Positions 684-50,745 of a stretch of 64,000 bases of DNA are shown one piece after another. The stretch covers positions 124-64,123 of the forward strand of contig DASPNQ010000075.1 in NCBI GenBank assembly GCA_035626435.1, given 5' to 3'. Within the stretch, counting starts at the first letter, position 1. Every line of letters starts with the position of its first letter. Origin of the DNA: Vicinamibacterales bacterium (lineage in GTDB: Bacteria; Acidobacteriota; Vicinamibacteria; Vicinamibacterales; UBA2999). The notes under the pieces were generated by a model, which worked only from the letters and a program-made list of their open reading frames with translations, was not told the origin of the DNA and made no database searches. The position numbers were made by a program, and so were the translations under genes.

Positions 684-813
684 CGAGTCCTCCGGGACGG
701 GGGCGAGTGTAGCCGATTTCTGCCTTGCAAGCGGTCAGCGTTCGGCGTAACGTCTGCGCAAAAGTGTCGAGCGGCGGTTTTCCGATTGCAAGTTGCCTTT
801 CTGGAGGGTCGGT

Positions 814-3800
814 ATGCGAAATAGCCGGTGGCTGTTGACTACAGCCCTTGTCGGTCTTGTCATGGCACTGAGCACAGCAGGGGTGGCCTACGGACAGTCG
901 TTCCAAGGCGGCATGCGCGGCGCTGTCAAAGACGCGCAGGGCGTGATCCCTGGGGTGACCGTGACCCTGACCAACGACGCGACCGGGGTGTCGCGCGACA
1001 CCGTGTCGAACGATTCGGGTGAGTACTCGTTCCCGGCTCTCGACCCGTCGACGTATTCCATCAAGGCGTCGGTGCAGGGTTTCAAGACCTTTGAGCGTCG
1101 CGGCATCCGCATCGGCGCGCAGCAGTTCGTGACGCTGGACATCACGCTCGAGGTCGGCACCGTCGCCGAGACGATCACCGTCACCGCGGATGCGCCGCTG
1201 ATCGAAACCTCCAACGCCTCGCACTCGGAAGTCATCGACAGCAAGACGCTCGAGGCGCTGCCCAGTGTGGGGCGCAACGTCTTTTTGATGGCGGTCACGG
1301 TCCCGACGGTGCAGAGCAGCGGCGACACGCATTGGAACCGCATGCAGGACCAGACCGGCGCATCGTCGCTGTCGGTCGGCGGCGGCGGCGTGCGGGCCAA
1401 CAACTACCTGCTCGACGGCTATCCCATCACCGATTTGCAGAACCGCTCGACGACCAATCCAAGCCAGGAAATGGTCGACGACATTCGCGTGCAGGTGCAC
1501 ACCTACGACGCGGAGATGGGCCGCACCGGCGGCGGCGTCTTCAACACCGCGGCGAAGTCGGGTTCGAACCAGTTCCGGGGCGCCGGCTACTACCTGACGC
1601 GGCCGAGCGCGCTGGTGGGCGGCAACTTCTTCAACGAGATCCGCGGCATCAAGACCAACGACCAATACTGGCGGAACGGCGGCGGCGGTTTTGGCGGCCC
1701 GGTGTTCCGCAACAAGACGTTCTTCTTTGTTGCGGGCGAGGCCTACCGTGACGGGCAGTCGCAGAACAACACGCTGCACGTGCCGACGGCGGCGATGCGC
1801 AACGGTGACTTCAGCAACTTCCGCGATGCGCAGGGGCGGATGATTCCGATCTACGACCCGCTGACGACCGACGCCAACGGCAACCGCCAGCCGTTTCCGG
1901 GCAACATCATCCCGGCCAATCGCATCAATCCGGTCGGCCGCGCGCTGGTCAACGCACTACCGCTGCCGACATTACATCCCGAGTACGACGACAACTCGCC
2001 GAACCTGCCGGCACAGAACATCATCGAGTCCAAGGCGCGGCAGGTCTCGTTCAAGCTCGATCATCACTTCACCGACAACATCGGCCTCAACGGCTTGTAT
2101 CTGAATCAGAGCACCTTCGAGCCGGACGCGAACTACTTCCCCGACGCGCCATACGCGGCGCCCGCCTTCCACCTGCAGCGCGACGTCAACATGTTCGTGC
2201 TGAACAACACCTACATCATGGGACCGTCGACGGTAGCGACCTTCCGGGTCGGCATGAACAATTTCAGCGACGACAACGTGCTGCCGTACCCGTTCGACAT
2301 GCGTACCGTGCCTGGCATCAACCCGGCGTTCGCGAACGCGCTGCCGGTGCAGAAGTTCCCATCGCTGACGCTGACCGGCTATGCCGGCACCGGCAACAGC
2401 GGCTTGTCGGACACCAATTACTATTCATGGGGCCTCAACGGATCGGTGACGCGCCTGGCCGGCGGTCACAGCCTTAAGACCGGCGGCGACTATCGGATCA
2501 TCGGTGTCGATTCGCTGAACCACGGACAGTCGGCCGGCAGCTACACCTTCAGCGGCGTGATGACGCGCGCGAATCCGAGCGCGCAGAACGTCAATGCGAT
2601 CGCCGACATCCTGCTCGGCTATCCGGCGTCCGGCACGCTGGCCCTCAACAGCGACTTCAATCAGTTCGTGAAGTATTACGCGTGGTTCGCGCAGGACGAC
2701 TGGCGCGTCAGCGAGCGGCTGACGGTCAATTACGGGGTGCGGCTCGAACACGAAACCGGCCTGGCGGAGAAGGACAACCAGATGGTGGTCGGCTTCGATC
2801 GTGACGCGCTCAGCCCGATCAACATCACCATCCCGGCCGACCCGGTCGCTGGAACGCCGGCCCGCCAAGTGCGCGGCGGCTTGCTATTCGCCGGCCAGAA
2901 CGGCAACAAGACCGAGACCGGCAACGTGCCGCCAGTCAAATTCTCGCCGCGTATCGGCATGGCGTTCTCGCTCAACGACAAGACGGTGGTGCGCGCGGGC
3001 TATGGCTTGTTCTGGGGCCCCTGGCAGTCGGGCGTTCAGAGCACGCCCGGGTACTCGCAGACCAGCACGCTGCAGCAGGACACGCTGACGCCGATCACGT
3101 CGATCAACAACCCGTTCCCGAACGGCCTGACGCCAATCAGCGGCAACTCGCTGGGGATGATGACCGGCGTCAGCAGCGCTGTGACGTTCATCGATCCCGA
3201 TCGCGACGCGCCGCGCGTGCATCAGTACTCCGCGGATATCCAGCGGCAACTGCCCGGCGATATGAGCATCGGCGTGACTTATATGGGCTCGCTCGGCCGT
3301 CACCTGACGTGGGGCGGCACCGCGACGGGGATCGTCAACATCAACCAGGTCGACCCCAAGTACCTCTCGCTCGGGACCCGTCTGCTCGACAACCTCCCGA
3401 ACCCGTTCTTCGGCGTGGCCGGCGCCGGCGGGTTCACCTCGCGCGCGACGCTGCCGCGGAATCAGCTGCTGCGGCCGTTTCCACAGTTCGACAACGTCAA
3501 CATGATCTACAGCACGCTGGCACGCTCGAAGTACGACGCCGGCGTGATCTCGCTGACCAAGCGCGCGACCGGGTGGTTCGGCGGCCGATTGAGCTACACA
3601 TATAGCCGCCTCTACGACAACCAGTTCGCGCAGAGCAACTACTACTCCAGCTCGCCCGGCATCTTGAACCACTACGCGGCGGTGCCATGGTCCGAGTACT
3701 TCAATCCCGACGCCGAGTACGGACGCAGCCTGCTCGACTCGCCCCATAAGCTCGTCGCCAGCCCGATCATCCGCTTGCCGTTCGGGGAAGGGCACAAATG

Positions 3801-4311
3801 GCTCCAGAGCGGCGTCGGCAATCTGCTCGCGGGCGGCTGGACGGTGTCGTTCGTGATTCAAATGCAGAGCGGCTTCCCCATGGGCGTCAGCCAGAACACC
3901 AACAACACCAACCTGCTCGGCGCCGGACAGCGTCCGAACCTCGTGCCTGGCGTCGATCCACGCGTCGCGGGCAGCATTACCGACCGCCTGCGACAGAACC
4001 CCGACGACAATCTCTATCTGAATGCGAGCGCGTTCACGCAGGCGCCGCCGGGAACGTTCGGCAACGCGCCGCGCATTCTCGAGGGCGTGTATTCACCGTG
4101 GCGCAATTCCACGGACATGGCGTTGTCGAAGGATGTCGGCCTGGGCGGGCAGCGCCGCCTCAACGTGCGCGTCGACATGATCAACGTGTTCAACAACCCG
4201 TGGTTCGTGGCGCTCGGCAGCTCGGCGTTCGGCAACGCCAACTTCGGCCGCGTCACCGCGCAGGCCAACTACTCGCGAACGATGCAAGTTACGGGTCGAG
4301 TGTCGTTCTGA
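814..4311 (+). CDS. TonB-dependent outer-membrane receptor with N-terminal carboxypeptidase-regulatory-like domain
   Basis: ORF 793..4311. The ATG at 814 has a GGAGGG Shine-Dalgarno 7 nt upstream. Signal peptide ...AGVAYGQ. A CarboxypepD_reg-like segment (GVIPGVTVTLTNDATGVSRDTVSNDSGEYSFPALDPSTYSIKASVQGF) is followed by a plug and a long beta-barrel ending in a C-terminal F. Confidence 0.85.
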   Translation: MRNSRWLLTTALVGLVMALSTAGVAYGQSFQGGMRGAVKDAQGVIPGVTVTLTNDATGVSRDTVSNDSGEYSFPALDPSTYSIKASVQGFKTFERRGIRIGAQQFVTLDITLEVGTVAETITVTADAPLIETSNASHSEVIDSKTLEALPSVGRNVFLMAVTVPTVQSSGDTHWNRMQDQTGASSLSVGGGGVRANNYLLDGYPITDLQNRSTTNPSQEMVDDIRVQVHTYDAEMGRTGGGVFNTAAKSGSNQFRGAGYYLTRPSALVGGNFFNEIRGIKTNDQYWRNGGGGFGGPVFRNKTFFFVAGEAYRDGQSQNNTLHVPTAAMRNGDFSNFRDAQGRMIPIYDPLTTDANGNRQPFPGNIIPANRINPVGRALVNALPLPTLHPEYDDNSPNLPAQNIIESKARQVSFKLDHHFTDNIGLNGLYLNQSTFEPDANYFPDAPYAAPAFHLQRDVNMFVLNNTYIMGPSTVATFRVGMNNFSDDNVLPYPFDMRTVPGINPAFANALPVQKFPSLTLTGYAGTGNSGLSDTNYYSWGLNGSVTRLAGGHSLKTGGDYRIIGVDSLNHGQSAGSYTFSGVMTRANPSAQNVNAIADILLGYPASGTLALNSDFNQFVKYYAWFAQDDWRVSERLTVNYGVRLEHETGLAEKDNQMVVGFDRDALSPINITIPADPVAGTPARQVRGGLLFAGQNGNKTETGNVPPVKFSPRIGMAFSLNDKTVVRAGYGLFWGPWQSGVQSTPGYSQTSTLQQDTLTPITSINNPFPNGLTPISGNSLGMMTGVSSAVTFIDPDRDAPRVHQYSADIQRQLPGDMSIGVTYMGSLGRHLTWGGTATGIVNINQVDPKYLSLGTRLLDNLPNPFFGVAGAGGFTSRATLPRNQLLRPFPQFDNVNMIYSTLARSKYDAGVISLTKRATGWFGGRLSYTYSRLYDNQFAQSNYYSSSPGILNHYAAVPWSEYFNPDAEYGRSLLDSPHKLVASPIIRLPFGEGHKWLQSGVGNLLAGGWTVSFVIQMQSGFPMGVSQNTNNTNLLGAGQRPNLVPGVDPRVAGSITDRLRQNPDDNLYLNASAFTQAPPGTFGNAPRILEGVYSPWRNSTDMALSKDVGLGGQRRLNVRVDMINVFNNPWFVALGSSAFGNANFGRVTAQANYSRTMQVTGRVSF

Positions 4312-18747: not shown

Positions 18748-20697
18748 ATGAGAGGGATGCGCAGGATGGTCCATCCTCTCGTTCGCGATGCTCGCGGCGC
18801 CGCGCTTCGGCCGGCGACGTGGGACGAGGCGCTCGAACGCGTCGCTCGTGGTTTTACCGCGACGCGGGACACGCACGGCGGCCAGGCCTTCGGCCTGTTC
18901 AGCTGCTCGAAAAGCACGAACGAGATGAACTACGCGGCGCAGAAGTTCGCCCGCGTGGTGATGGGCTCCAACAACCTCGACAGCTGCAACCGTACGTGAC
19001 ATGCCCCGAGCGTCGCCGGTCTGGCGACGGCATTCGGCATGGGCGGGGGGACCAGCTCGTACCGCGAGATTGAAGAAACGGATTGCATCCTGCTCTGGGG
19101 ATCGAACGCCAGGGAGACGCATCCGATCTTCTTCCACCACCTGCTCAAGGGCGTGAAGCGCGGGGCGAAGCTCTACGCAATCGATCCACGGCGCACCAGC
19201 TCCGCGGAGTGGGCGGACGTGTGGGCGGGCCTCGACGTCGGTACCGACATCGCGCTGGCCAACACCATGGCGCGCGAGATCATCTGCAGCGGCCTGACCC
19301 ACGACGAATTCATCGAACATGCGACGACCGGCTTCGCCGAATATCGTGACCTGGTCATGCCGTGGACGCTCGACCGGGGCGCGCTGGAAACCGGCGTGCC
19401 CGCGGCGGTGATTCGGGAGATGGCGCATACCTACGCGACCGCGCCACGCGCGATCATCTGCTGGACCCTCGGCATCACCGAGCATCACACCGCCGTGCAC
19501 AACGTGCTCGCGTTGATCAACCTGGCGCTGCTGACCGGTCACGTCGGCCGGTGGGGATCGGGGTTGAATCCGCTGCGCGGTCAGAACAACGTGCAGGGCG
19601 GTGGCGACATGGGCGCGCTGCCGGATCGGCTGCCGGGGTTCCAGCACGTCGAGAACGATGCCGTGCGGGCGAAGTTCGACGCCTTTTACGGCGTCGCGAT
19701 CCCGCCGAAGAAGGGCTGGCATCTGTCGGGGATGTTCGATGCGATGGAACGTGGCGAGCTGAGGGCGCTCTACGTGATCGGCGAGAACCCGTTGCAATCG
19801 GAGGCCGATCAGCATCGCGCGACGCGGCTGATCGAGGGGCTCGAGTTTCTCGTCGTGCAGGACATCTTCCTGACCGAGACCGCGCAACGGGCCGATGTCG
19901 TGTTGCCGGCGGCGGCCGGCGCGTTCGAATCCGAAGGTACCGTCACCAACAGCGAGCGGCGCGTGCAGCGGGTCCGCAGGACGCTCGATCCACCCGGAGA
20001 GGCGCGCGAGGATTTGAAGATCATCGTCGACATCGCGCGCCGCATGGGCCACGACTGGCCGGATGATGCCGAGTCGATGTGGAACGAGGTGCGGCAGCTG
20101 TCGCCCGTGCACGCGGGGATGAGCTACGCGCGGCTGGACGCGTTGGACGGCCTCCGCTGGCCGTGCTACGACGAGGAGCATCCGGGCGAGATGTTCCTGC
20201 ACTCGCGGCTGTGGGAGCGCCCGGTCAAGGGACCGCGCGCGCCGTTTTCGATCGTGCGGCACGCGCTGCCGCTCGACGAGTTGAGCGACGACTTCCCGCT
20301 GCGCCTGACCACCGGCCGCCGCCTCGCCGAATACAACACCGGCGTGCAGACCGGCTCGTATGCCTACCCGACGCGTCGCGGCGAAACGCTCGACGTGTCG
20401 CCGGAAGATGCGGAGCGCCTCGGCCTGTCGGAGGGACAGCGGGTGCGCATCTGCTCGCGCCGCGGCTCGGTCGTAGCGCCGGTGCATCTCGACGAAGCGC
20501 TCCGTCCGGGTTTGACCTTCATGACCTTCCATTTTCCCGACGACGTCTCGACCAACCTGCTGACGAACGACAAGGTCGATCCGCTCGTCGGCACGGCGGA
20601 GTTCAAGGCCACGGCGATTCGCATCGAGAAGCTGGACGCGGCTGCCGTGCACGAGGATCCGGCCGTCGCGGCGGAGGCCTCCCGCTCCGGGCGCTGA
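18748..20697 (+). CDS. fdhA: Formate dehydrogenase catalytic (molybdopterin) polypeptide with in-frame TGA (putative selenocysteine) at 18997..18999; lacks the N-terminal Fe-S domains
   Basis: Track ORFs 18607..18999 and 19039..20697 are in the same frame. Read-through gives MVHPLVRDARGAALRPATWDEALERV...NYAAQKFARVVMGSNNLDSCNRT-[TGA]-HAPSVAGLATAFGMGGG. This aligns, from memory, with the E. coli FdhF segment ...VSWDEAL...[32 protein letters not shown]. The C-terminus has the molybdopterin dinucleotide-binding tail (DPLVGTAEFKATAIRIEKL). The start could be any of ATG 18748, 18757 or 18766. Confidence 0.8.
19006..19037 (+). promoter_or_regulatory. Putative bacterial SECIS stem-loop
   Basis: Perfect 7-bp stem CGTCGCC (19011-19017) with GGCGACG (19023-19029) and loop GGTCT. 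The hairpin starts 11 nt after the TGA. The stem extends through CCGAG (19006-19010) with TTCGG (19033-19037) across a 3-nt bulge. Confidence 0.6.
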
Positions 20698-22469
20698 TGG
20701 ATCTGCACATCGTCGGCGCGGAACCGAGCGAAGCCGAGCGGGCTGCCGTCGATCGACTGCTGGGCCCGCCGGTGAGCGGCTGGGGCGGCGGCGAGCGTGA
20801 TATCGCGCGCGACGGCCGTGCGGCCGTCGGTGGCCGCAGCCTGACCGGCGATCGCGATCGCCTGCTCCCGGCGCTGCATGCGGTCCAGGACGCGATGGGG
20901 TGGATCAGCCGCGGCGCGCTCAATTACATCTGCCGGCGTTTGACGGTACCGCCGGCGGAGGCGTGGGGTGTCGTGACTTTCTATCACCTGCTCGCCACCG
21001 AGCCGCAGTCCGGCAACATCGCGCACGTCTGCGACGACATCGCTTGTCGCCTCCACGGCCTCGACACGCAGATCGCCGACTTGACGAGCCAGGGCTTCAC
21101 GGTGAAACGCTCGCCGTGCCTGGGCCAATGTGATTACGGCGCGGCCGCGCTGATCACGCGCGCCGGCAAAGACCCGCAGCGATTTGTCGTGAAGCCCGCG
21201 GTGGTACCGCACCTCGGCGCCCTGGGCGCCGCGCGCCTGCTCAAGCGCATCGGACGCGTCGATCCCTCCAGCCTCGATGAGTATCGCCGCCACGGCGGGT
21301 ATTCGGCGCTCGCGAAAGCGATCGAGATGGGGCCTGCTCGAGTGATCGCCGAAGTGACGGCGGCCAAGCTGATGGGCCGCGGCGGCGCGGCGTTCCCGAC
21401 CGGCCGCAAGTGGGAGGCGGTCGCACGCGAATCGAGCTATCCGCATTACGTGGTGTGTAATGCCGATGAATCGGAACCGGGCACGTTCAAGGATCGTGTC
21501 GTCATGGAACAGGATCCGTTTGCGGTGATCGAGGCGATGACGATCTGTGGATTCGCGACCGGCGCCGCGCGCGGCTTCATTTACATCCGCGGCGAATATC
21601 CCGAAGCGGAACGCGCGATCGGTCACGCGATCGCGCAGGCGGCCGCGGCCGGCTATCTCGGCCCGGACATCGCGCGATCGGGTTTTGCGTTCGGCATCGA
21701 GATCCGGCGCGGCGGCGGCGCCTATATCTGCGGCGAGGAGACGGCGCTGTTCAATTCGATCGAAGGCAAGCGCGGTGAGCCGCGCTCGAAGCCGCCGTTC
21801 CCGGCCCAGTCCGGGCTGTTCGGCAAGCCGACGGTGGTCAACAACGTCGAAACGCTGGTCAACGTGCTCGACATCGTCAACGAGGGAGGCGAGGCCTGGG
21901 CCAACAGCGGGACGCCTGCGTCGACGGGGTCGCGCCTGTTTTGCCTGTCCGGACATGTCGTCAATCCCGGCCTCTACGAGATCGAGTGCGGACGGACGCT
22001 GCGAGAAGCGATTGAGCTCGCCGGCGGCATCCATCCGGGACGTCGCCTGCAGGCAGTGCTGCTTGGCGGCGCTGCCGGGACGTTCGTCGGGCCGGACGCC
22101 CTCGACATGCCGCTGTCATTCGAGGGCGCGCGCGCGGCCGGGGCGACGCTGGGATCGGGTGTCATCATGGTGTTCGACGACACCGCCGACTTGCACGACA
22201 CCCTGCGCCGCATCGCCGAGTTCTTCAAGCACGAATCGTGCGGCCAGTGCGTGCCGTGCCGCGTCGGAACGGTGAGGCAGCTCGAGATGCTGTCGGCCTC
22301 CGCTGGCGGCGCGCGCGTCGCCGATCGAACCTACGCGGAGCTGGCTCAAGCGATGCGCGATGCGTCAATCTGTGGCCTGGGACAGACGGCGGCGTCAGCC
22401 ATCGAGTCTGCGTTCGCCAATGTGTTGAGACCGAGGCCTGAGGATCCCAACAGCGGAGGACACGTGTGA
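20697..22469 (+). CDS. NuoE-like [2Fe-2S] / NuoF-like (FMN, NAD, [4Fe-4S]) fusion protein, the diaphorase unit of an NAD-linked formate dehydrogenase
   Basis: The ATG at 20697 overlaps the upstream stop (TGATG). The N-terminal part has Cx4C...Cx3C (HVCDDIAC, SPCLGQC). The remainder is the 51-kDa family (GRGGAAFPTGRKW, NADESEPGTFKDR, ESCGQCVPCRVG). Confidence 0.85.
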   Translation: MDLHIVGAEPSEAERAAVDRLLGPPVSGWGGGERDIARDGRAAVGGRSLTGDRDRLLPALHAVQDAMGWISRGALNYICRRLTVPPAEAWGVVTFYHLLATEPQSGNIAHVCDDIACRLHGLDTQIADLTSQGFTVKRSPCLGQCDYGAAALITRAGKDPQRFVVKPAVVPHLGALGAARLLKRIGRVDPSSLDEYRRHGGYSALAKAIEMGPARVIAEVTAAKLMGRGGAAFPTGRKWEAVARESSYPHYVVCNADESEPGTFKDRVVMEQDPFAVIEAMTICGFATGAARGFIYIRGEYPEAERAIGHAIAQAAAAGYLGPDIARSGFAFGIEIRRGGGAYICGEETALFNSIEGKRGEPRSKPPFPAQSGLFGKPTVVNNVETLVNVLDIVNEGGEAWANSGTPASTGSRLFCLSGHVVNPGLYEIECGRTLREAIELAGGIHPGRRLQAVLLGGAAGTFVGPDALDMPLSFEGARAAGATLGSGVIMVFDDTADLHDTLRRIAEFFKHESCGQCVPCRVGTVRQLEMLSASAGGARVADRTYAELAQAMRDASICGLGQTAASAIESAFANVLRPRPEDPNSGGHV

Positions 22470-23365
22470 GCGAGCCGATTTGGTTCACCCTGCCGCCACG
22501 GTCGACGGCCGATCCAAAGCCGCCGGCGCCGGCCGACAAGCCGCTGGTTCGGGTCACGATCGACGGGCGTTCGATCGACGTGCCGCAAGGCACGACGATC
22601 ATCGACGCCTGCAAGATCCTCGGCATCGAGATCCCCACGCTGTGCTATCTGGAGACCCTGACTCCGGTCAACGCCTGCCGGGTCTGCGTCGTCGAAGTCG
22701 AGGGCGCGCGGGTGCTCGCTCCGGCGTGTTCTCGCGCCGTCGAAGCCGGCATGATGATCAAGACCCGATCGCCGCGCGTCGATCTGTCACGCAAGCTCGT
22801 GCTGGAATTGCTCGCTTCGTCCGTCGACCTGTCGACAGCCCCCTCGCTTCAGCCGATGATGCAGGAGTACGGCGCCAATCCGGAGCGGTTTGGCCACGGC
22901 GAAACCGTCGCCCAGCCCGTGAAGGTCGACAACGATCTCTACATCCGCGATTACAGCAAGTGCGTGCTTTGCTACAAATGCGTTGAAGCGTGCGGGCACG
23001 ATGCCCAGAACACGTTTGCGATCGCCGTTGCAGGTCGTGGCTTCGATGCGCACATTTCCACCGAGCTCGATGTCCCGCTTCCCGAGTCCGCGTGCGTCTA
23101 TTGCGGCAACTGCATTGCGGTGTGTCCGACCGGCGCGCTGATGGCGAAGCCCGAATTCGATTTGAGGGAAGCGGGCGAGTGGCGCCCGCAGGAGCAGACC
23201 GCCACCGACACGATTTGTCCGTATTGCGGCGTCGGTTGCACGCTGACCGTTCACGTGCAGGATCGCCAGATCATCAAAGTCACGTCGCCGTTCGACAACG
23301 AGGTGACGCGCGGGAATTTATGCGTCAAGGGGCGGTTTGGCTTCGAGTACGTGAATAACGGGTAG
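22466..23365 (+). CDS. Fe-S polypeptide equivalent to the N-terminal part of an FdsA/NuoG-type formate dehydrogenase alpha chain
   Basis: The GTG at 22466 overlaps the upstream stop (GTGTGA) and GGAGGA lies 6 nt upstream. Contains a 2Fe-2S ferredoxin-type fold (TLCYLETLTPVNACRVCVVEVEG) and two 4Fe-4S motifs (CVLCYKCVEAC, CVYCGNCIAVCP). The molybdopterin-oxidoreductase 4Fe-4S domain CPYCGVGC...LCVKGRFGFEYV comes next and is followed immediately by the stop. Confidence 0.85.
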   Translation: MSEPIWFTLPPRSTADPKPPAPADKPLVRVTIDGRSIDVPQGTTIIDACKILGIEIPTLCYLETLTPVNACRVCVVEVEGARVLAPACSRAVEAGMMIKTRSPRVDLSRKLVLELLASSVDLSTAPSLQPMMQEYGANPERFGHGETVAQPVKVDNDLYIRDYSKCVLCYKCVEACGHDAQNTFAIAVAGRGFDAHISTELDVPLPESACVYCGNCIAVCPTGALMAKPEFDLREAGEWRPQEQTATDTICPYCGVGCTLTVHVQDRQIIKVTSPFDNEVTRGNLCVKGRFGFEYVNNG

Positions 23366-23451
23366 GGCAGACAGGCAGACAGGCAGACAGGCAGACAGGC
23401 AGACAGGCCGACAGGCCGACAGGCAGACAGGCCGACAGGCAGACAGGCAGG
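23366..23451. repeat. Tandem octamer array GGCAGACA (10 units, 3 as GGCCGACA)
   Basis: Read directly from the sequence. The array starts at the base after the TAG stop at 23363-23365. There are 10 consecutive in-phase 8-nt units, then a partial GGCAGG. Confidence 0.95.
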
Positions 23452-23454
23452 CTG

Positions 23455-23486
23455 CTATCAAATTGACACTATTATCAGTTTGATAG
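23455..23486. promoter_or_regulatory. Inverted repeat / candidate PadR operator overlapping a TTGACA -35 box
   Basis: CTATCAAATTGA (23455-23466), then 8 nt, then TCAGTTTGATAG (23475-23486); the arms match at 11 of 12 positions. This is an AT-rich island in GC-rich DNA, with TTGACA at 23463-23468. It lies 13 nt upstream of the padR ATG. Confidence 0.4.
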
Positions 23487-23498
23487 TAGTGTCGCGAC

Positions 23499-23852
23499 AT
23501 GCCTCAGGATCGCGACCGCGTCGATCGTTTTCTTCCCCTCAAGCCGTTCGTGCTCGACGTATTGCTCGAGCTGGCCGAAGGCAAACGTCACGGTTGGGGT
23601 CTGATTCGGCACATTCAGCAACACGACGGCGGCGGCAGGATTCTGCCCGCCAACTTCTACCGCACGCTGCGGGCGCTGCGGGATGACGGGCTGATCGAGG
23701 AAACGGCAGGCGACGCCGAGGCGGATCCTGCCGAACGCCGCCAGTACTTCAGCCTGACAACGCTTGGCGCGAAAGTGGCGCGCGCGGAAGTGAAACGGCT
23801 CGAAGCGCTGGTCGTCGATCCTCGCGCCAGGCGCTTGCTGAGGAGCCGCTAG
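23499..23852 (+). CDS. PadR-family transcriptional regulator
   Basis: Winged-helix PadR signature LKPFVLDVLLELAEGKRHGWGLIRHIQ...FYRTLRALRDDGLIEE. The stop lies 2 nt before the permease start. Confidence 0.85.
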   Translation: MPQDRDRVDRFLPLKPFVLDVLLELAEGKRHGWGLIRHIQQHDGGGRILPANFYRTLRALRDDGLIEETAGDAEADPAERRQYFSLTTLGAKVARAEVKRLEALVVDPRARRLLRSR

Positions 23853-23854
23853 CC

Positions 23855-26512
23855 ATGGCGATCAGCCGGACGTTGTATCGGGTGTTGCTGCGGCTCTGTC
23901 CTCCGGATCTCCGCCGCGAGTTCGGCGCCGAGATGGAGGCCCTGTTTGTCGCCGATCTCGCGCGCGCCCGGGGCCTGGGCCGGCTTGCGGTCTGGGCACG
24001 AGCGCTTGCCGACGTCCTGCGGCATGGATTCGGGGCGCGCAACGATGGTTGGCGTCGCTTCCGCAGGACATCCGCCTACGTCGAATACGAGACCGGGCGA
24101 TGGACGTTCGAGACATGGCGTTATGACGTGCGGCACGCGATCAGGGCGATGGGCCGTCAGCCCGCCACCAGCGCAATCATCGTGCTGACCCTGGCTTTGG
24201 CGATCGGCGCGAACACCGCAGTGTTTTCGGCGGTGCAGGCCGTGTTATTGCGGCCGTTGCCGTATCCGCAGCCCGAACGCCTCGTGCGGGTGTACGAGAA
24301 GCGTCCGAACGAAGGCGTGTTCACGAACCCCGTGTCGCCGGCGGACTTCCTCGACTGGGCCCGGCTCAGCACGACATTCGCCTCGGTGGCGGCACTCAGC
24401 GAGGCCGCCTTCGATCTCACCGGCGCCGGTGACCCCGAACGGGTGCCCGGCGCCATGGTGACGGCGTCGTTGTTCGAGGTGTTCGGCGTCCGCGTAATGC
24501 ACGGCCGCGGCTTCGCGGCGGAGGAAAACCTGGCCGGCCGCAATCGCGTCGCCGTACTGAGTCACGCGTTGTGGCAGCAGCGCTTCGGCAGCGATTCCAG
24601 CGTCGTTGGACGCACCATCATGTTGCAGGGATTGCCGCATCAAGTGATCGGGGTGCTACCGCCGGACGTAGCGTTCCCCGCGGGAGAGACGCGCATCCTG
24701 ACGCCCGCCGTGCTGCAGGCCGGCGCCGAGCCGCCGCAGCGCTCGGCACATTACCTCCAGGTCTACGGCCGGTTGAAGCCCGACGCGACGCTCGAACAGG
24801 CGCGCGCCGAAATGGATCGCATCGGGCGAGACCTGGAGGCGCAATATCCCGACACGAATCGAGGACACGGCTCGCACGTCGAGGCACTGGCCCCCGATAT
24901 GGTCAAGAGCGTGCGCGGGATGCTGCTGATCCTGATGGTGGCGGTCGCGTTCGTCTTGCTGATCGCCTGCATCAACGTCACCAACCTGCTGCTTGCGAAA
25001 GCCGCGGGGCGCCGTCGCGAGATGGCGCTGCGCGCGGCCATCGGCGCCGGACGTGCGCGGCTGCTCAGGCAGATGCTCGTTGAAGCGGTCGTCCTGGCGT
25101 TCGTCGGCGGCGCCGCCGGCCTGCTCGTCGCGGTATGGGGCGTGCAAATGCTCGCCGTTCAGATGCCACCGGCGCTGCGCCTCGATGACTCAGTCGTCTT
25201 CAGCCTCCCCGTACTCGCGTTCACGATCGCGGCGTGTGTGGGAACGGGGCTAGTGGCGGGCATTCTGCCGGCATGGCACTTCCTGCACGGCGATCCCGGC
25301 GAGACCTTGAAAGCCGGCGGCCGCGCGCCGGTGAGCCTGCGCAAGCGGCTGCGCTTCGGCTTGATCGTCGCGGAAATCGCGTTGACGTCGCTGGTGCTCG
25401 TCGGCGCCGGTTTGACGCTGCGCAGCTTTCAGCGCGTGTTGACGGAGCCTTCGGGAATCGACACCGCCGGGCGACTGACGTTCAACGTGCGGTTGCCACG
25501 AGCGCGGTATGCCGACGGCGAGGCGCTGACGCGCTTTTACGCCGAGCTCGAGCGTCGCTTCGCCGCGGATCCGGCAATTCGTCGCGCGGGCGCGACGAGC
25601 GCGCTGCCGCTCACGCCCGCCGATCAGCGCAACGGGATCGTGATTGATGGACTGGAGCGGACCGCGGAGGACGGGCCGACCCGCGCCCACCCGCGCTCGG
25701 TCACGCCCGGATATCTACCCGCCGCCGGAATGCAGGTGATGCAGGGCCGTGGGCTTGTCGACGCCGATCGCACCGGGCCCAGGGTCACGGTCATCAACGA
25801 AACCATGGCGCGGCGCTATTGGCCCGGCCGATCGCCGCTTGGTGCGCGAGTGCGATTCTCCGCGGAGGACGACCGCTGGTACGAGATAGTGGGCATCGTC
25901 GGCGACGTCAAACATTGGGGCCTCGACGCGCCGGCCAATCCCGAAATGTATGTGGCGTTCGAACAGTACCCGCAGGCCAGCATGTCGTTCGTCCTGGAAG
26001 CGGCCGCCAACCCGCTGACGCTGATTCCAAACGTGCACGCGGCTGTGCGGGCAATCGACCCGAACCTGCCGCTGTCAGACGTGCGCACGTTTGACGTCGT
26101 GGCTTCGCGATCGGTCCAACAGCGGCGCTTTACGATGCTGTTGCTGACGTGCTTCGCCGTGCTGGCGCTGGTGCTTGCGGCCGCAGGCATCTACGGCGTG
26201 ATGGCGCACGTCGTCGCGCTGCGAACGGCGGAGATCGGTGTGCGGTTGACGCTCGGTGCGAAACCTTCCGCGGTGATGCGCCAGGTACTTGGCGAGGGTG
26301 CGATGCAGACCGCGATCGGCCTCGCGATTGGTCTCGGCGCGTCGCTCGCGTTGATGCAGGGCTTGCGGACGATCCTGTTCGGGATTGAACCGACGGATCC
26401 GTTCACGCTCGTGTCGGTGGGAGCAGCGCTGATGCTCGTCGCGCTACTCGCCGTGACCGTCCCCGCGCTGCGGGCGATGCGCGTCGATCCGGTCACGGCG
26501 CTGCGACAGTAG
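23855..26512 (+). CDS. Duplicated FtsX/MacB-type ABC permease (ADOP-type orphan permease)
   Basis: 885 aa. The N-terminal cytoplasmic segment is followed by two modules, each TM + MacB-like periplasmic domain + FtsX 3-TM bundle (both halves end ...DPxxALR). No ATPase gene is adjacent. Confidence 0.85.
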   Translation: MAISRTLYRVLLRLCPPDLRREFGAEMEALFVADLARARGLGRLAVWARALADVLRHGFGARNDGWRRFRRTSAYVEYETGRWTFETWRYDVRHAIRAMGRQPATSAIIVLTLALAIGANTAVFSAVQAVLLRPLPYPQPERLVRVYEKRPNEGVFTNPVSPADFLDWARLSTTFASVAALSEAAFDLTGAGDPERVPGAMVTASLFEVFGVRVMHGRGFAAEENLAGRNRVAVLSHALWQQRFGSDSSVVGRTIMLQGLPHQVIGVLPPDVAFPAGETRILTPAVLQAGAEPPQRSAHYLQVYGRLKPDATLEQARAEMDRIGRDLEAQYPDTNRGHGSHVEALAPDMVKSVRGMLLILMVAVAFVLLIACINVTNLLLAKAAGRRREMALRAAIGAGRARLLRQMLVEAVVLAFVGGAAGLLVAVWGVQMLAVQMPPALRLDDSVVFSLPVLAFTIAACVGTGLVAGILPAWHFLHGDPGETLKAGGRAPVSLRKRLRFGLIVAEIALTSLVLVGAGLTLRSFQRVLTEPSGIDTAGRLTFNVRLPRARYADGEALTRFYAELERRFAADPAIRRAGATSALPLTPADQRNGIVIDGLERTAEDGPTRAHPRSVTPGYLPAAGMQVMQGRGLVDADRTGPRVTVINETMARRYWPGRSPLGARVRFSAEDDRWYEIVGIVGDVKHWGLDAPANPEMYVAFEQYPQASMSFVLEAAANPLTLIPNVHAAVRAIDPNLPLSDVRTFDVVASRSVQQRRFTMLLLTCFAVLALVLAAAGIYGVMAHVVALRTAEIGVRLTLGAKPSAVMRQVLGEGAMQTAIGLAIGLGASLALMQGLRTILFGIEPTDPFTLVSVGAALMLVALLAVTVPALRAMRVDPVTALRQ

Positions 26513-28236: not shown

Positions 28237-30630
28237 TCAATCCTGCCGGATCGCCACCACCGGATCGACGCGCGCCGCTCGGCGCGCCGGCAGCACGCAG
28301 GCCGCCGCCGTGACCAGAACAATCGCCAGCGGCAGCAGGATGAACGTCAGCGGATCGTGCGTGGTCACCCCAAACACGAGGCTGCCGAGCACGCGCGACA
28401 GCAGCAGCGCCGCCGGCACGCCCAGGGCCACGCCGGCAATCGCATACACTGCGCCTTGCGCGACGACAGAGGTGGCCATCGACGATGGCGTGGCGCCGAG
28501 CGCGAGACGCACTCCAATCTCACGCTCGCGCTGCCGCACGCGATACGCGACGACGCCGTACACCCCGACCAGCCCCAGTGCGAGCCCGGTCGCCGCAAAA
28601 ACCGTCAGCAGAAAGCCGAGCAAACGAGGGCGGCCTAACGTTCCCGCGATCAGAGTCGTATAGGGCTGCAGCTCCGCGACCGGGACAATCGGATCGACCT
28701 CGAAGGCGATTTGCCGGATCGCCGCGGCCAGTTGCTCCGGCGCGCCCTGCGTGCGCACGACCATCGCCATCGGAAACATGAACGTCTGCGTCAATGGCCT
28801 GAAGATTTCTGGCAGTGGTTCCTTGTCGAGGCTGACATGGCGAACGTCGCCCACGACGCCGACGATCTGCACGGGCTCGTCCTGGCCCGTACGTCCGCTC
28901 CGCACGATCATCGTCTGCCCGACCGCGCGGGACGGCTGGTCGAAGAACCGGCGCGCGAGCGTTTCGTTGACGATGGCCACCGCCGCGGACTGCGTCTGAT
29001 CGCCGTCAGCAAACGTCCGACCGTACCTCAGCGGGATCCTCATCGTCTGGAAGTAGTTGCCGTGCACGAACCGCCAACCAACCGTGGGTGGCTGCTCGCC
29101 GGGCGCGAGCGTCTGATCGATGCGGCGCGCGCCGGTCGTCCACGAGTATCCGCTCATCGGCAAGTGGCCGGCGAATGCGGTGTTGTCGACACCTGGCAGG
29201 GCGGCGACGCGTGCCCGCACCTGCTCGAGATAAGGCAACCCGGTGGTCAGCGCGCGATATTTCGACGTCGTCTGCAATCTGAACGTCAAGACGCCGCGTG
29301 GATCGAAACCTGGATCGACGCGCTGCAGGTTCCAGAGCGATCGCAGCATCAGCATCGAGCCAATTCCGAGGACCACGGCCACGCCGATCTGCACAGCGAC
29401 CAGCGATCCGAGCGCCCGGCGACGGCCGGGCGTGTCGGTCGTCCGCGACTGTCGCAGCAGCGGCTGCATCGTCGGCCGCGCCGCCAGCGCCGCGGGGACG
29501 AGGGCGACGAGCATTGCGACGGAGACGGAGGCGGCGAGGACCGTCGCAAGTACGGTCCAATCGAGCTCGATTCGACCGAGGTGGGGCACTTCCGCCGGAA
29601 TCTGCGCGACCAGAGCCGGCAACAGCGCCCGCGCGACGACCACGCCGGCGAGAGATCCGATAACGGCGAGGACGGCTTGTTCGACGAGGACCTGCTCTAT
29701 GAGCCGCCGCCGCGAGGCGCCGAGCGCGGAACGCAGCGCCATTTCGCCGACGCGCTCGATCGATCGGCCAAGCACCAGCGTCCCGAGATTGATCGCGGCC
29801 AGCATCAAGATCAGTCCGACCGCGCCGAGCAGGATCAACAACGCGGGCCGCACGTCCCCCGTGATCGATTCCTGAAACGACTGTACGCGCATGGTTCGGC
29901 CCCAATCGCTCGGGCGGGCCAGCTCCTTGCGCATCGCCGGAACCAGTTCGCTCAGCTCACGGGTCGCGGTTTGTACAGTGGCTTCGCGGGTCAGGCGGCC
30001 AACCGCGAGTGAGAACGTCGCTTTGAATTGCGGTGTACCTGGCGTCCAGGCCAGCGGCGCCCACAGATCCGTTCCCGGCTCGAAGACCTCAAAGCCGGGC
30101 GGCATCACGCCGACGATGGTGTGTGGTTCCTGATCGAGCTGGATGATGCGGCCAATCACGGCGGGATTGGCGCCGAAGCGACTTCGCCACACGCCGTCGC
30201 TCAACACCACGATACGTTGGGCGTTGGGCGCACTGTCACCGGGTTCAATCACGCGGCCAAGCGCAGCCGTTGCGCCGAGCGTTCGAAACAGGTTGTCCGA
30301 GGTCCGCGCCCCGGTGACCTTGAGGGGCTCGCCGCCGTCGGCGACGAGACCCATCATCCAACCGCCAGACAACGCCGCGATGTGTTCGAAACTGCGTGTT
30401 CGACTCCTCCAGTAATCGACATCCTCGTTGGAGACGAAGACGTTTGGCGCGATCGCCACAAGGCGATCGGGCTCGGGAAAGGGCAACGGCCGCAGCAGCA
30501 CGCCACGAACGACGGAGAACACCGCCGCGTTGGCGCCCGCGCCTAGTGCGAGCAGCGTCAGGGCCACCACGGCAAAACCGGGGCGTCGAAACAGATTCCG
30601 TAAGGCGAGCGACAGGGCAGGGGATCGCAT
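28237..30630 (-). CDS. Duplicated FtsX/MacB-type ABC permease (second ADOP-type orphan permease)
   Basis: 797 aa. Typical N-terminus LRNLFRRPGFAVVALTLLALGAGANAAVFSVVRGVLLRPLPFPEPDRLV. Two FtsX modules. C-terminal ...RVDPVVAIRQD. Confidence 0.85.
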   Translation of the reverse strand: MRSPALSLALRNLFRRPGFAVVALTLLALGAGANAAVFSVVRGVLLRPLPFPEPDRLVAIAPNVFVSNEDVDYWRSRTRSFEHIAALSGGWMMGLVADGGEPLKVTGARTSDNLFRTLGATAALGRVIEPGDSAPNAQRIVVLSDGVWRSRFGANPAVIGRIIQLDQEPHTIVGVMPPGFEVFEPGTDLWAPLAWTPGTPQFKATFSLAVGRLTREATVQTATRELSELVPAMRKELARPSDWGRTMRVQSFQESITGDVRPALLILLGAVGLILMLAAINLGTLVLGRSIERVGEMALRSALGASRRRLIEQVLVEQAVLAVIGSLAGVVVARALLPALVAQIPAEVPHLGRIELDWTVLATVLAASVSVAMLVALVPAALAARPTMQPLLRQSRTTDTPGRRRALGSLVAVQIGVAVVLGIGSMLMLRSLWNLQRVDPGFDPRGVLTFRLQTTSKYRALTTGLPYLEQVRARVAALPGVDNTAFAGHLPMSGYSWTTGARRIDQTLAPGEQPPTVGWRFVHGNYFQTMRIPLRYGRTFADGDQTQSAAVAIVNETLARRFFDQPSRAVGQTMIVRSGRTGQDEPVQIVGVVGDVRHVSLDKEPLPEIFRPLTQTFMFPMAMVVRTQGAPEQLAAAIRQIAFEVDPIVPVAELQPYTTLIAGTLGRPRLLGFLLTVFAATGLALGLVGVYGVVAYRVRQREREIGVRLALGATPSSMATSVVAQGAVYAIAGVALGVPAALLLSRVLGSLVFGVTTHDPLTFILLPLAIVLVTAAACVLPARRAARVDPVVAIRQD

Positions 30631-30723
30631 GCCACGTTAGACGACGGAGGTCAGGATGCGTTAGCTCGGTGCCAGGCGCGAGAAGGCAGAAAGCCGCGGG
30701 AAATGTCAGAATGGCGGGGCGTG

Positions 30724-40526: not shown

Positions 40527-40575
40527 CGAAGGCCGAACACTGAAGGCCGAAGGCTGAAGGCTGATAGCTGATCGC
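40527..40575. repeat. Tandem heptamer array (CGAAGGC / TGAAGGC / TGATAGC family, 7 units)
   Basis: Read directly: CGAAGGC CGAACAC TGAAGGC CGAAGGC TGAAGGC TGATAGC TGATCGC. It ends one base before the nadE stop codon on the minus strand. Confidence 0.9.
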
Positions 40576-43248: not shown

Positions 43249-43271
43249 CTCTGTTGTAGAGTCTATTCGTT

Positions 43272-45530
43272 ATGTTTCGACAGTCAGGTCTGATCCTCGT
43301 CGCCGGCGTGGTTTTGGCGTTCGCGACCGCGCCCGCCGTTGCGCAAACCGCCGCGACGCCGTCACTTCAACCCCCGGCGGCGACCACCACCGGCACGGTC
43401 GTCGACATTTCCGGCGCGGTGATTCCTGGCGCCGAGGTGGTAGTGACCTGCCGCGATGGGCGCGAAAGCAAACTGACCACCGACGCCGACGGCACTTTTG
43501 ACGCCCGGGTGATGGCGGCGCGTGTGCGCGTGTCTTCCGAGGGGTTCGAGACGATCGACATGGAGATCACGGGCACCGGTCCCGTGCAAATCGTGCTGCG
43601 TCCGGTCAACTTCGCCGACTCGGTCGTGGTCACTGCGACGCGCGGCGCCGACCGTCTGCCGAGCGCCGCGAGCTCGACGGTGCTGACGTCCGCGGAATTG
43701 GTCAACATGGCGGCCGGCGCCCTCGACGACGCATTGCGATCGACACCAGGCTTCACGCTGTTCCGCCGGTCATCGTCGCGCGTCGCCAATCCGACGACGC
43801 AAGGCGTGACCTTGCGCGGGGTGTCGGGATCAGGCTCGAGCCGCACCCTCGTGCTGGCCGACGGCGTGCCGCTGAACGATCCGTTTGGCAGCTGGGTGTA
43901 TTGGAACCGCATCCCGATGGCGGCCGTCGAAAAGGTCGAAGTCGTACGCGGTGCGACGGGCGATCTCTACGGCGCGGGCGCGCTCGGCGGGGTAGTGCAG
44001 TTGTTGACCGTGCAGCCGAGCCGAACGCGCGCCCGGGCGACGTTCGACGGCGGTTCGCACGATACCTTCCGCGGTTCGTTGTTCCTTGCCGGACAGCGCA
44101 ATGGTTGGAGCGCGAGCGGCGCGTTCGAGGGCGTGCGAACGGATGGCGTCTTCGTGCTGGCATCGGAGCTGCGCGGCGCGGTCGATACGCGGGCGCGCAG
44201 CGACTACAACACAGGCTTCGTCACCGCCGGCCGCCGCGGCGACAACTGGCACGTCACGATCCGGGGTGCCGCGTACGCTGAAGAGCGCAACAACGGCACC
44301 GTCGTCCAGGTGAACGACACCGACTGGCGTCAGTTTTCCGGCGACGCCGGGGCCTACCTTGGCGGCGGCGTCCTTGAACTTCACGGCGGCGGCAGCACCC
44401 AGGACTATCACCAGACGTTTTCAGCGGTGGCCGCCGGGCGCGCCACCGAACGACTGACGTTCGAGCAATTCATCGACACGCGCGCCCGCTTCTTCAACGG
44501 GCAATGGACCCGCCCGTTTGGGCGCGCCACGCTGATTGTCGGCGGCGATTACCGCCACACCAAGGGACTCCAGGACGAAATCCCGTTTGTGCTTGTGTCC
44601 GGCGTCAACACGCAACGGCCGACGCTGGTGTCCGGCGGCACCGAAACACTCTCGGCGGGCTATGGCCGCGCCAATCTCGCGGTCACTGACGCGTTGACGG
44701 TTGAAATTGGCGCTCGCGCCGACACCTGGCGGTCGGACCCGCAGGATCCCGCACTACCGACACAGGAAGTGCAGTACGTGAGCCCGCGGGCGGCGGTTTC
44801 CGCGAGGGTCGGGCGAATGCAACTGCAAGCGTCCACGTATTACGCCAACCGCACGCCCAGCCTCAACGAGTTGTTCCGCCGATTCGCAGTGGGCAATTCC
44901 GAAACCCGCGCGAATCCTCAGTTGAAGCCAGAGAAGCTGACCGGCGTCGAGGGCGGCGTGTTGACCCAGTTCGCGCGCGCGTCGTTCCGCGCCACCGCGT
45001 TCTTGAACAATCTCGAAGGCGCCATTGCCAACGTGACGTTGTCACAGACACCCACGGCGATCATCCGCCAACGCCAGAACTCCGACACGATTCGGGCGGC
45101 CGGTCTCGAGTTGGAAGTGGATACGCGCTTCACCAACACCCTGAGCGCCAGCGGTCAGGTGGTATTTACGTCGAGCCACTTCCGTGGATCGGTGGCGACG
45201 CCGGCGCTGCGCGACAACGACGTGCCGCAGGTGCCGAAGGTGCAGGGTGGCGTCGCCGTGACCTGGGCGAACCCGCGCTGGTTCACGGCCGCCACGCAAG
45301 TGCGGTTCAGCGGCAAACAATTCGACGATGACCTGAATACGCCGGCGTTCGTGCTCGGCGCTTATGGTGTCTGGGACGCGACGGTCAGCCGCGCGCTGCT
45401 GCGCGGAGTTCACGCCTTCGCCGCCGTCGAAAACATTCTCGACACCGAGTACGACACGGCGCGGACCCCGCTGCGCTCGGTCGGCTGGCCACGTACGGTC
45501 CGGGTCGGCGCGCGCGTTACTTGGCAATAA
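43272..45530 (+). CDS. TonB-dependent outer-membrane receptor
   Basis: Signal peptide present. Short carboxypeptidase-regulatory-like segment (GTVVDISGAVIPGAEVVV). Plug domain (VVVTATR...LRGVSGSGSSRTLVLADGVPLND) and a barrel ending ...RVGARVTWQ. Confidence 0.85.
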   Translation: MFRQSGLILVAGVVLAFATAPAVAQTAATPSLQPPAATTTGTVVDISGAVIPGAEVVVTCRDGRESKLTTDADGTFDARVMAARVRVSSEGFETIDMEITGTGPVQIVLRPVNFADSVVVTATRGADRLPSAASSTVLTSAELVNMAAGALDDALRSTPGFTLFRRSSSRVANPTTQGVTLRGVSGSGSSRTLVLADGVPLNDPFGSWVYWNRIPMAAVEKVEVVRGATGDLYGAGALGGVVQLLTVQPSRTRARATFDGGSHDTFRGSLFLAGQRNGWSASGAFEGVRTDGVFVLASELRGAVDTRARSDYNTGFVTAGRRGDNWHVTIRGAAYAEERNNGTVVQVNDTDWRQFSGDAGAYLGGGVLELHGGGSTQDYHQTFSAVAAGRATERLTFEQFIDTRARFFNGQWTRPFGRATLIVGGDYRHTKGLQDEIPFVLVSGVNTQRPTLVSGGTETLSAGYGRANLAVTDALTVEIGARADTWRSDPQDPALPTQEVQYVSPRAAVSARVGRMQLQASTYYANRTPSLNELFRRFAVGNSETRANPQLKPEKLTGVEGGVLTQFARASFRATAFLNNLEGAIANVTLSQTPTAIIRQRQNSDTIRAAGLELEVDTRFTNTLSASGQVVFTSSHFRGSVATPALRDNDVPQVPKVQGGVAVTWANPRWFTAATQVRFSGKQFDDDLNTPAFVLGAYGVWDATVSRALLRGVHAFAAVENILDTEYDTARTPLRSVGWPRTVRVGARVTWQ

Positions 45531-45547: not shown

Positions 45548-45668
45548 CGATGGCCGAAGGCTGAACGCTGCTGAAGGCTGAAGGCTGTAGGCCGAAGGCT
45601 GAAGGCTGTAGGCCGAAGGCTGATAGCTGATAGCCGATAGCCGATAGCTGATAGCTGATAGCTGTAAG
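45548..45668. repeat. Tandem heptamer array, about 17 units (YGAAGGC/TGTAGGC block followed by YGATAGC block)
   Basis: Read directly. Units are in phase from 45548, apart from one 3-nt insertion at 45569-45571. The last six full units are T/CGATAGC. The array fills most of the 146-bp spacer between the receptor stop (45530) and the next ATG (45677). Confidence 0.95.
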
Positions 45669-50677: not shown

Positions 50678-50745
50678 CCTCGGCCTTCGGCCTTCGGCGG
50701 TTCCTAGTTCCTAGTTCCTAGTTCCTAATTCCTAATTCCTAATTC
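50677..50745. repeat. Composite tandem heptamer array (GCCTTCG units, then CTAGTTC x3 and CTAATTC x3)
   Basis: Read directly, between convergent stops. GCCTTCG is the reverse complement of the CGAAGGC unit seen at 40527 and 45548. The last unit overlaps the amidase stop codon and its final codon. Confidence 0.9.

Follow-up and report, generated by a model that had tools for sequence, protein, structure and literature searches.

Three same-strand genes at positions 18748-23365 (+) of the window, as we call the whole 64,000-nucleotide stretch of Vicinamibacterales DNA analyzed here (contig DASPNQ010000075.1), encode in order the Mo body of a formate dehydrogenase (FDH) alpha chain, a NuoE-NuoF fusion, and the Fe-S part of the same alpha chain, which is split between its proximal [4Fe-4S] domain and its bis(pyranopterin guanine dinucleotide) (bisPGD) body. 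We consider it likely that this operon encodes a functional split FDH complex, namely a heterotrimeric, soluble, cytoplasmic, NAD(H)-linked, Mo/W-dependent, selenocysteine (Sec) formate dehydrogenase. Metal-dependent FDHs are studied as CO2-reduction catalysts, and in all of the characterized relatives that we compared (the PDB matches of both alpha pieces) the proximal [4Fe-4S] cluster and the Mo/W cofactor are on one chain. The chemistry and the modules are known from NAD-dependent FDHs; what is new is the proximal cluster in trans and the rotated operon, combined with Sec. The features on which the argument rests are as follows.

18748..20697 (+): gene 1, alpha-C, the catalytic Mo/W-bisPGD subunit, 649 codons including Sec84 (Pfam, alignment with FdsA, TIGR01591)
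18997..18999 (+): in-frame UGA, the Sec codon, at the Mo ligand position, equivalent to Cys386 of Rhodobacter capsulatus FdsA (RcFdsA) (translation, column in 53 split-family loci)
19011..19029 (+): apical hairpin of the selenocysteine insertion sequence (SECIS), CGUCGCC-GGUCU-GGCGACG, whose loop starts 21 nucleotides (nt) after the U of the UGA (Rfam and comparative evidence)
20695..20699 (+): TGATG, stop/start overlap of genes 1 and 2 (sequence)
20697..22469 (+): gene 2, the NuoE-NuoF fusion, diaphorase, beta-gamma (Pfam, PDB match 7e5z_B)
22466..22469 (+): GTGA, start/stop overlap of genes 2 and 3 (sequence)
22466..23365 (+): gene 3, alpha-N, the Fe-S subunit, 299 amino acids (aa) (Pfam, alignment with FdsA)

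Domain content and cofactor ligands of the three products

Pfam scans of the gene 1 product revealed Molybdopterin (profile positions 1-352 of 353, E 7e-68) and Molydop_binding (E 2e-28) and no Molybdop_Fe4S4 domain. The latter is found in gene 3 (profile positions 3-55 of 55), where it follows Fer2_4 and two Fer4 motifs and ends at the C-terminus, the stop codon lying 11 residues past the conserved Lys288 of the domain. Alignment with RcFdsA (6tg9_A) pairs gene 1 residues 6-644 with 308-950 and gene 3 residues 14-297 with 12-304, the two pieces abutting at approximately residue 305. The Fdh-alpha profile TIGR01591 is divided in the same manner, with gene 3 covering positions 1-50 (51.5 bits) and gene 1 positions 52-672 (622.5 bits); it is the top family for gene 1, followed by NasC at 410 bits, and the NasA profile scores too. 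These three comparisons agree on the division of the alpha chain and support the central reading of the initial annotation, a split and permuted alpha, whose statement that gene 3 ends where the homology of gene 1 begins was right to within a few residues (FdsA 304 versus 308). That annotation had also allowed that gene 1 might keep an Fe4S4 domain of its own upstream; relaxed tblastn with the 61-residue Fe4S4 segment found no second such domain in the window, only the gene 3 copy. The stop/start overlaps from which it had deduced translational coupling are confirmed at both junctions. The true start of gene 1 may instead be the ATG at 18757 or 18766, and the Mo bodies of relatives mostly align from gene 1 residue 6.

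The translation of gene 1 contains the active-site motifs SCNRT-U-HAPS, with its U-H pair, and LRGQNNVQG. A U/C-H pair plus an RGQ motif defines "class I" FDHs (PMC8808070), and gene 1 falls into this class, with a Sec/Cys metal ligand, the adjacent His, and the active-site Arg of RGQ. The proximal [4Fe-4S] domain is complete but belongs to gene 3, off the bisPGD chain.

Gene 3 retains the ligands of four clusters: a [2Fe-2S] cluster (A5), two ferredoxin-type [4Fe-4S] clusters (A2 and A3), and the proximal [4Fe-4S] cluster (A1). None of the 16 Cys ligands, four for each cluster, varies among split Fe-S proteins with identities as low as 50%. Among the domains that the initial annotation had listed for the three products, Fer2_4, Molybdop_Fe4S4, Molybdopterin, Molydop_binding, 2Fe-2S_thioredx, and Complex1_51K were all found, whereas Pfam did not detect NADH-G_4Fe-4S_3 in gene 3 because its His/Cys ligands are gone. 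The A4 ligands (His/Cys3) are absent from the window and from every split-family locus, the motif HPLDCxxCxxxGxCxLQ being replaced by SSVDLSTAPSLQ, and gene 3 thus lacks the full NuoG-like cluster set, with its His-ligated A4, of FdsABG(D). In the cryo-electron microscopy structure of the R. capsulatus FDH (RcFDH), A4 sits at the dimer interface, off the path from Mo to flavin mononucleotide (FMN) (PMC7171172). The electron wire should thus survive without A4, but a different quaternary structure is predicted. The counterpart of RcFdsA Lys295, a residue next to the Mo cofactor as well as the proximal [4Fe-4S] cluster (PMC12176258), is by alignment Lys288 of the Fe-S subunit, which puts it on a different chain from the Mo cofactor.

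In gene 2, a thioredoxin-like [2Fe-2S] domain of NuoE type is fused to an FMN/NAD(H) domain of NuoF type that includes a [4Fe-4S] region, as detected by the Pfam domains 2Fe-2S_thioredx (E 9e-19), Complex1_51K (E 1e-47), SLBB, and NADH_4Fe-4S (E 2e-20). Its translation keeps the Cys motifs of NuoE (Cx4C...Cx3C) and of NuoF (CGQCVPC...C, that is, CxxCxxC...C), and these are the modules of an NAD+-dependent FDH, here fused. The sole PDB chain matching both modules is Fdh1B of Methylorubrum extorquens (7e5z_B, residues 52-572 versus 48-555).

Top PDB hits of gene 2 also raised a bifurcating enzyme of the Bfu/HydABC type. Bifurcating NuoF homologues would need extra clusters; we did not adopt this reading, since Pfam detects no Fe-S domain beyond those listed for gene 2, whose last matched domain (NADH_4Fe-4S) ends at residue 574 of 590.

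Comparison with known systems places the operon among the NAD-dependent FDHs while setting it apart in layout. FdsABG(D) of R. capsulatus and Cupriavidus necator (6tg9/6tga, 9wxb) is composed of the same modules (NuoG-like Fe-S, Fe4S4, bisPGD, NuoF-like, and NuoE-like), the window pieces align end to end with FdsA over the two ranges given above, and the active-site His and Arg and the conserved Lys by A1 are common to both. In the window, however, alpha is cut at ~305 with its halves rotated around the diaphorase gene, beta and gamma are fused, A4 (FdsA His117 and Cys121/124/130) is missing, no FdsD gene was seen, and the metal ligand is Sec instead of the Cys of FdsA. The tungsten FDH Fdh1AB of M. 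extorquens (7e5z, 7vw6) resembles the window in having a beta subunit that is a single NuoE-NuoF fusion like gene 2, and its alpha matches both window pieces; yet Fdh1A is one unsplit chain of 989-995 residues, and Sec is found in the window Mo piece. Among solved structures, the Mo body scores best (E 1e-132 to 1e-142) with FdhF (FDH-H) of Escherichia coli and FdhF of the hydrogen-dependent CO2 reductase (1aa6, 7qv7), with which it has the Sec-His pair and the RGQNNVQG arginine motif in common; unlike the window piece, FdhF has its own Fe4S4 domain (residues 1-60), and it has no NuoG-like extension and other electron partners. The closest earlier case in which an FDH-type bisPGD protein is made as more than one polypeptide is the FwdB/FwdD pair of formylmethanofuran dehydrogenase (5t5i), in which the cut removes the C-terminal cap (domain IV) and leaves Fe4S4 on the catalytic chain, whereas the cut in the window removes the N-terminal Fe4S4 domain.

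We propose that the three products would assemble into one electron-transfer chain. Alpha-C would carry the bisPGD cofactor with Sec84, His85, and the RGQ arginine; alpha-N would carry A1 with the conserved Lys, A2, A3, and the A5 [2Fe-2S] cluster; and the fusion protein would contain FMN and the NAD(H) site together with a [4Fe-4S] cluster and, to the side, a [2Fe-2S] cluster. Formate would deliver its electrons to Mo(Sec84) on alpha-C; from there they would cross to A1 on alpha-N at a non-covalent contact between the subunits and travel onward through A2, A3, the A5 [2Fe-2S] cluster, and the NuoF [4Fe-4S] cluster to FMN and NAD+, a path that would in principle be reversible (CO2 reduction). 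Such an enzyme would show that the Mo-to-[4Fe-4S] junction can be non-covalent, and would give engineering and maturation studies a catalytic head that is modular, with the electron wire as a module of its own.

A side feature of the Fe-S protein is seen in many homologues (e.g., the relatives' loci L017, L022, L031, L047, L053, and L012): a His-rich insertion of ~25 residues (…GERD…GHHH…P.G…) that follows the lost A4 region and precedes the first ferredoxin motif (gene 3 residues ~140-150) and is absent from the window and from Streptomyces. It might bind a metal.

The in-frame UGA and its hairpin

The initial annotation correctly recognized 18748-20697 as the Mo-body gene but read it as an uninterrupted open reading frame (ORF), overlooking the in-frame TGA at 18997-18999, which lies within SCNRT-U-HAPSVAGL at the Mo/W ligand position. 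The corresponding column holds TGA in 40 split-family loci and TGC or TGT in 13 Actinomycete loci (Streptomyces, Nonomuraea, Amycolatopsis, and Sphaerisporangium), and all split-family loci outside these Actinomycete Cys forms have TGA. On the 3' side of the UGA, the hairpin has a 7-bp stem and a GGUCU loop, at a distance from the UGA that we take to match that in the SECIS of E. coli fdhF. Its nucleotides are essentially invariant in 37 TGA loci, synonymous third positions included, and in L032 there is one compensatory swap of G-C to C-G. In the 13 Cys loci the hairpin is lost and its codons drift; the Gly codon of the loop is GGT in 37/37 TGA loci versus 1/13 Cys loci. This alternation of Sec and Cys, together with the constraint on synonymous sites, is the classic signature of a bacterial selenoprotein gene and much stronger evidence than the Rfam match; we conclude that UGA 18997 is decoded as Sec by way of the hairpin. 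The Cys forms are a nested Actinomycete subclade in the Mo-body tree, which suggests a Sec-to-Cys conversion in that lineage.

Public gene calls cut the Mo gene at this UGA, into products of 80-83 aa and 472-534 aa (L001:4269-6083, L002:4280-6175), so that the Sec codon accounts for an additional fragmentation of the alpha chain in databases. Were the gene callers right, the TGA at 18997 would be a true stop and the Mo body would be split again, into proteins of 83 aa and 565 aa. The single-sequence fold of the 59-nt stretch is unremarkable (z = -0.87) and its Rfam score is weak, which speaks for a true stop; on the other hand, the codon coincides with that of the metal ligand, for which 13 orthologues have Cys, the GGUCU hairpin is fixed at synonymous sites where TGA is kept and decays where it is not, and the first in-frame ATG past the TGA lies 39 nt downstream, at 19039. 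Considering this evidence, we regard a true stop as extremely unlikely.

Relatives, origin of the gene order, and competing explanations

To find relatives, one genome per species was scanned with an alignment of split Fe-S proteins, which yielded at least 80 loci, and the three window proteins then served as tblastn queries against these. Every locus that has all three genes and an Fe-S identity of at least 55%, which makes at least 56 with the window included, shows the order Mo, NuoEF, FeS and the same break. Split-family loci come from soil bacteria of at least eight phyla: Acidobacteriota (Vicinamibacterales, Bryobacterales, Thermoanaerobaculia, and Acidiferrum), Gemmatimonadota, Verrucomicrobiota, Planctomycetota, Chloroflexota, Actinomycetota, Armatimonadota, and "delta proteobacteria." Cultured Actinomycetota with the operon include Streptomyces scabiei ATCC 49173, S. 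parvulus JCM 4068, and Amycolatopsis azurea DSM 43854, and two long contigs (1.17 Mb and 177 kb) have the same gene order. A protein search for stand-alone Fe-S proteins of ~300 aa at 79-88% identity returned at least 120 clusters, those named by NCBI being Vicinamibacterales. The Fe-S ORF ends 0-25 codons past the Fe4S4 domain in all split loci, and in several relatives only 3-16 codons separate an upstream in-frame stop from the start of Mo-body homology; tblastn found no second Fe4S4 domain in the split-family loci, and none upstream of gene 1. By contrast, in all relatives at or below 52% identity the Fe-S part and the Mo body are directly fused, and NuoEF precedes or follows them. In a neighbor-joining tree of the sampled loci, the 51 near-full-length split Mo bodies group together in a single clade that excludes all 12 fused ones, and Mo-body distances are 0.05-0.44 within this clade versus 0.57-0.71 from split to fused. 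All three genes are under purifying selection (dN/dS = 0.10-0.18 for the window versus L001 and L002, the two closest relatives).

These data bear directly on whether the layout is an artifact, that is, an assembly error or a recent rearrangement that left fdsA pseudogene fragments. The window is a single unverified sequence, and public gene callers report the fragmented ORFs described above; however, that fragmentation comes from the Sec UGA, the cofactor ligands are all intact, the dN/dS ratios are low, and the break and order recur in at least 55 other loci, among them cultured strains and independent chromosome-level assemblies (L008, L016, and L023). The recurrence across independent assemblies means that the order is not an assembly rearrangement, the outcome that the initial annotation had been concerned about, and we give the artifact reading, which conservation already refutes, practically no credence.

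Neighboring ORFs were clustered across 56 of these loci and representatives scanned with Pfam. The most frequent neighbor is fdhD (FdhD, PF02634, E 2e-69), found in 22/56 loci (L004, L017, L021, L022, L025, L026, L031, L036, L037, L039, L041, L044-L046, L048, L050, L051, L053, L055, L057, L067, and L075) and directly downstream of the Fe-S gene in 20/24 cases; an MFS transporter lies upstream in 12 loci, and a formate-tetrahydrofolate ligase is nearby in five. The window has none of these three genes. FdhD is specific for the sulfuration of FDHs. The initial annotation had reported no fdhD- or FdsD-like gene next to the operon, which is correct for the window scans but, as regards fdhD, is a local trait of the window's lineage and not family-wide. 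Neither the FdsD gene nor the FdsC/FdhD maturation gene expected of an FdsABG(D) operon is present: no FdsD was found among the window ORFs scanned, and no recurrent FdsD-like small ORF emerged from the neighbor clustering (ORFs of at least 90 aa).

The same context informs the question of substrate. The operon could encode the enzyme as described but with another substrate or direction, for example a CO2 reductase, or with NADP(H) or another acceptor, since a sequence does not reveal substrate or direction. The family has the signature DSCNRT(U/C)HAPSV where DHCAR(L/I/T)(U/C)H is canonical, and the NasC and NasA profiles also score on gene 1. Yet Fdh-alpha is the best profile by far (622 versus 410 bits for NasC), the U/C-His and RGQ residues are those of FDHs, and fdhD and formate-tetrahydrofolate ligase accompany the operon in the loci just given. 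From this context (fdhD in 22/56 loci and the ligase in five) we predict formate oxidation/CO2 reduction activity and judge a different substrate, direction, or acceptor to be unlikely.

Alternatively, the locus might comprise two separate enzymes, a Mo body acting by itself or through a partner encoded elsewhere, and an NAD(H) diaphorase or ferredoxin reductase made up of NuoEF and the Fe-S protein. Stand-alone NuoG-like Fe-S plus NuoF modules do exist (e.g., 9mqx), unrelated genes are inserted between the parts in L004, L017, L022, and L078, and the physical association of the products is our proposal. Set against these points, the three genes are adjacent and in the same order across at least eight phyla, and a Mo body without an Fe-S cluster would have no electron outlet. 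To our knowledge, the Molybdop_Fe4S4 domain has no role apart from the bisPGD body, and the Fe-S protein keeps both this domain and the Lys that lies near the Mo cofactor and proximal cluster of RcFDH (PMC12176258). We therefore find two enzymes quite improbable, less so than a true stop at the UGA but more so than a change of substrate.

Returning to the single split FDH, its gene order can be related to that of fused relatives. The arrangements Mo, EF, FeS; EF, FeS·Mo (e.g., L062, L068, and L071-L073); and FeS·Mo, EF (L079 and L083) have the same cyclic order. Most likely, the rotated order arose by duplication and trimming: if an EF-alpha operon was duplicated in tandem and then lost the first EF-FeS and the last Mo, fission and rotation would come about in one step, with alpha cut once, at the boundary of domains I and II, in the ancestor of the single clade. 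A fused NuoEF upstream and the lack of A4 are already seen in L062, L068, and L071-L073, the fused relatives whose Fe-S parts are most similar (43-52% identity, mostly Anaerolineales), so that both traits are probably older than the split. The operon would thus offer a clean case of cyclic operon permutation together with gene fission.

A more ambitious idea, which we put forward tentatively and regard as rather doubtful, is that the split is a selected design in which the Mo/Sec body is translated first, matured separately, and docked on a pre-assembled Fe-S/flavin wire. Separate maturation would then encompass Sec insertion and the FdhD-dependent sulfuration and insertion of the cofactor. 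If this were true, the enzyme would be a natural plug-in Mo/W catalytic head with inter-subunit Mo-to-[4Fe-4S] electron transfer, the operon would represent circular permutation at the operon level, and there would be a large mis-annotated pool of selenoprotein FDHs in seemingly aerobic soil bacteria.

Several observations weigh against a functional split selenocysteine FDH with the history outlined above. The association of the two alpha pieces is deduced from sequence. Gene 1 (622.5 bits) and gene 3 (51.5 bits) each fall below the TIGR01591 cut-off of 666.25, a direct consequence of the split, as their sum exceeds it. The Rfam SECIS_3 match (18994-19052), although anchored exactly on the UGA, scores 19.6 bits, far below the gathering score; no tRNA, tRNA-Sec included, was found in the 64-kb window, and there were no sel domains among the 40 other window ORFs scanned, so that Sec decoding in this organism is argued from the SECIS evidence. 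The same 40 ORFs contained no fdhD, mob, or moa domains. Raw RNA-seq of S. scabiei (runs X23 and X24) does support transcription, with sense-strand reads over all three genes, but thinly, at a depth of ~1-3, and the gene downstream of the operon is far more strongly expressed. Finally, the nearest fused relatives differ between FeS-based and Mo-based comparisons, and the sister group and ancestral order are therefore not firmly established.

Runs X1 and X3, labelled TRANSCRIPTOMIC RNA-Seq (L050:3700-9400), were considered as expression evidence and discounted, since contigs of up to 30-44 kb span the locus and show genomic DNA content.

Annotation, surroundings, and other observations

The split clade is widespread and poorly annotated. 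Public annotation divides alpha into three ORFs (~83, ~535-565, and ~300 aa), none of which passes a curated FDH model, and none of the three window products reaches the cut-off of an NCBIfam model; in source records the Fe-S piece goes by "YjgC-like oxidoreductase" or "2Fe-2S cluster-binding protein." Because the ORFs are fragmented and mislabelled, the capacity for formate oxidation and the use of selenium are probably underestimated for Acidobacteriota, Chloroflexota, Planctomycetota, and other soil phyla. A full-text literature search of incomplete coverage, such that an earlier description is possible, found no FDH alpha split at this point or so ordered. SCO6559-6561 of S. coelicolor may be a further copy of the operon; the search returned no paper with these tags. 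The initial annotation's view that the architecture is unusual for the enzyme class holds with respect to all characterized enzymes compared, although it is common in nature.

Some relatives have distinctive loci. L018 (DATLRQ010000161.1), binned as "Candidatus Micrarchaeaceae archaeon," has a bacterial-type operon at 58-68% identity that pairs with a Verrucomicrobiia locus in the tree, and its archaeal label is probably a mis-binning. A DUF5946 gene lies between the Mo and NuoEF genes in a member of the Chloroflexia (L017:5517-5948) and in one of the Limnocylindrales (L022:4289-4786), the latter operon also containing a 128-aa minus-strand ORF, possibly a PIN/VapC-type toxin (L022:3507-3893). 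Other insertions are a 368-aa hydrophobic, probably membrane protein (L078:3679-4785) and a 449-aa opposite-strand gene between NuoEF and FeS (L004:6515-7864). An Anaerolineales locus (L072:2857-7659) has tandem alpha paralogues, the first with the NuoG-like part and the second with only Fe4S4 and the Mo body.

Elsewhere in the window are a caa3-type cytochrome oxidase assembly factor, CtaG, at 61264-62088 (-), and two large TonB-dependent/CarboxypepD_reg outer-membrane proteins at 751-4311 (+) and 43260-45530 (+). Together with the Vicinamibacterales names of the homologues, these suggest an aerobic Acidobacteriota host; Sec-FDHs are usually regarded as oxygen-sensitive (PMC7171172).

A scan of the window for promoters and terminators returned nothing exceeding the shuffle expectation. 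A tandem array of the octamer GGCAGACA (x10.6) occupies 23366-23450, from the first base past the gene 3 stop, and its unit is found again at 53609-53659; other arrays with periods of 7, 8, or 14 nt occur at 45552-45664, 50700-50747, 55148-55198, and 40528-40571. Short-period repeats between genes look like a genome-wide habit. Rfam matches to mir-341, on the octamer array, and to radC were dismissed as chance. Farther downstream, at 23455-23486, the two 8-bp arms of an inverted repeat, CTATCAAA/TTTGATAG, are separated by 16 nt; the repeat lies just upstream of a PadR-family regulator gene (23499-23852) and could be a PadR operator. The PadR gene is followed by an 885-aa ORF at 23855-26512; in L001 the genes after PadR have MacB_PCD and FtsX domains, and the window encodes a 799-aa MacB_PCD/FtsX permease at 28237-30636 (-).

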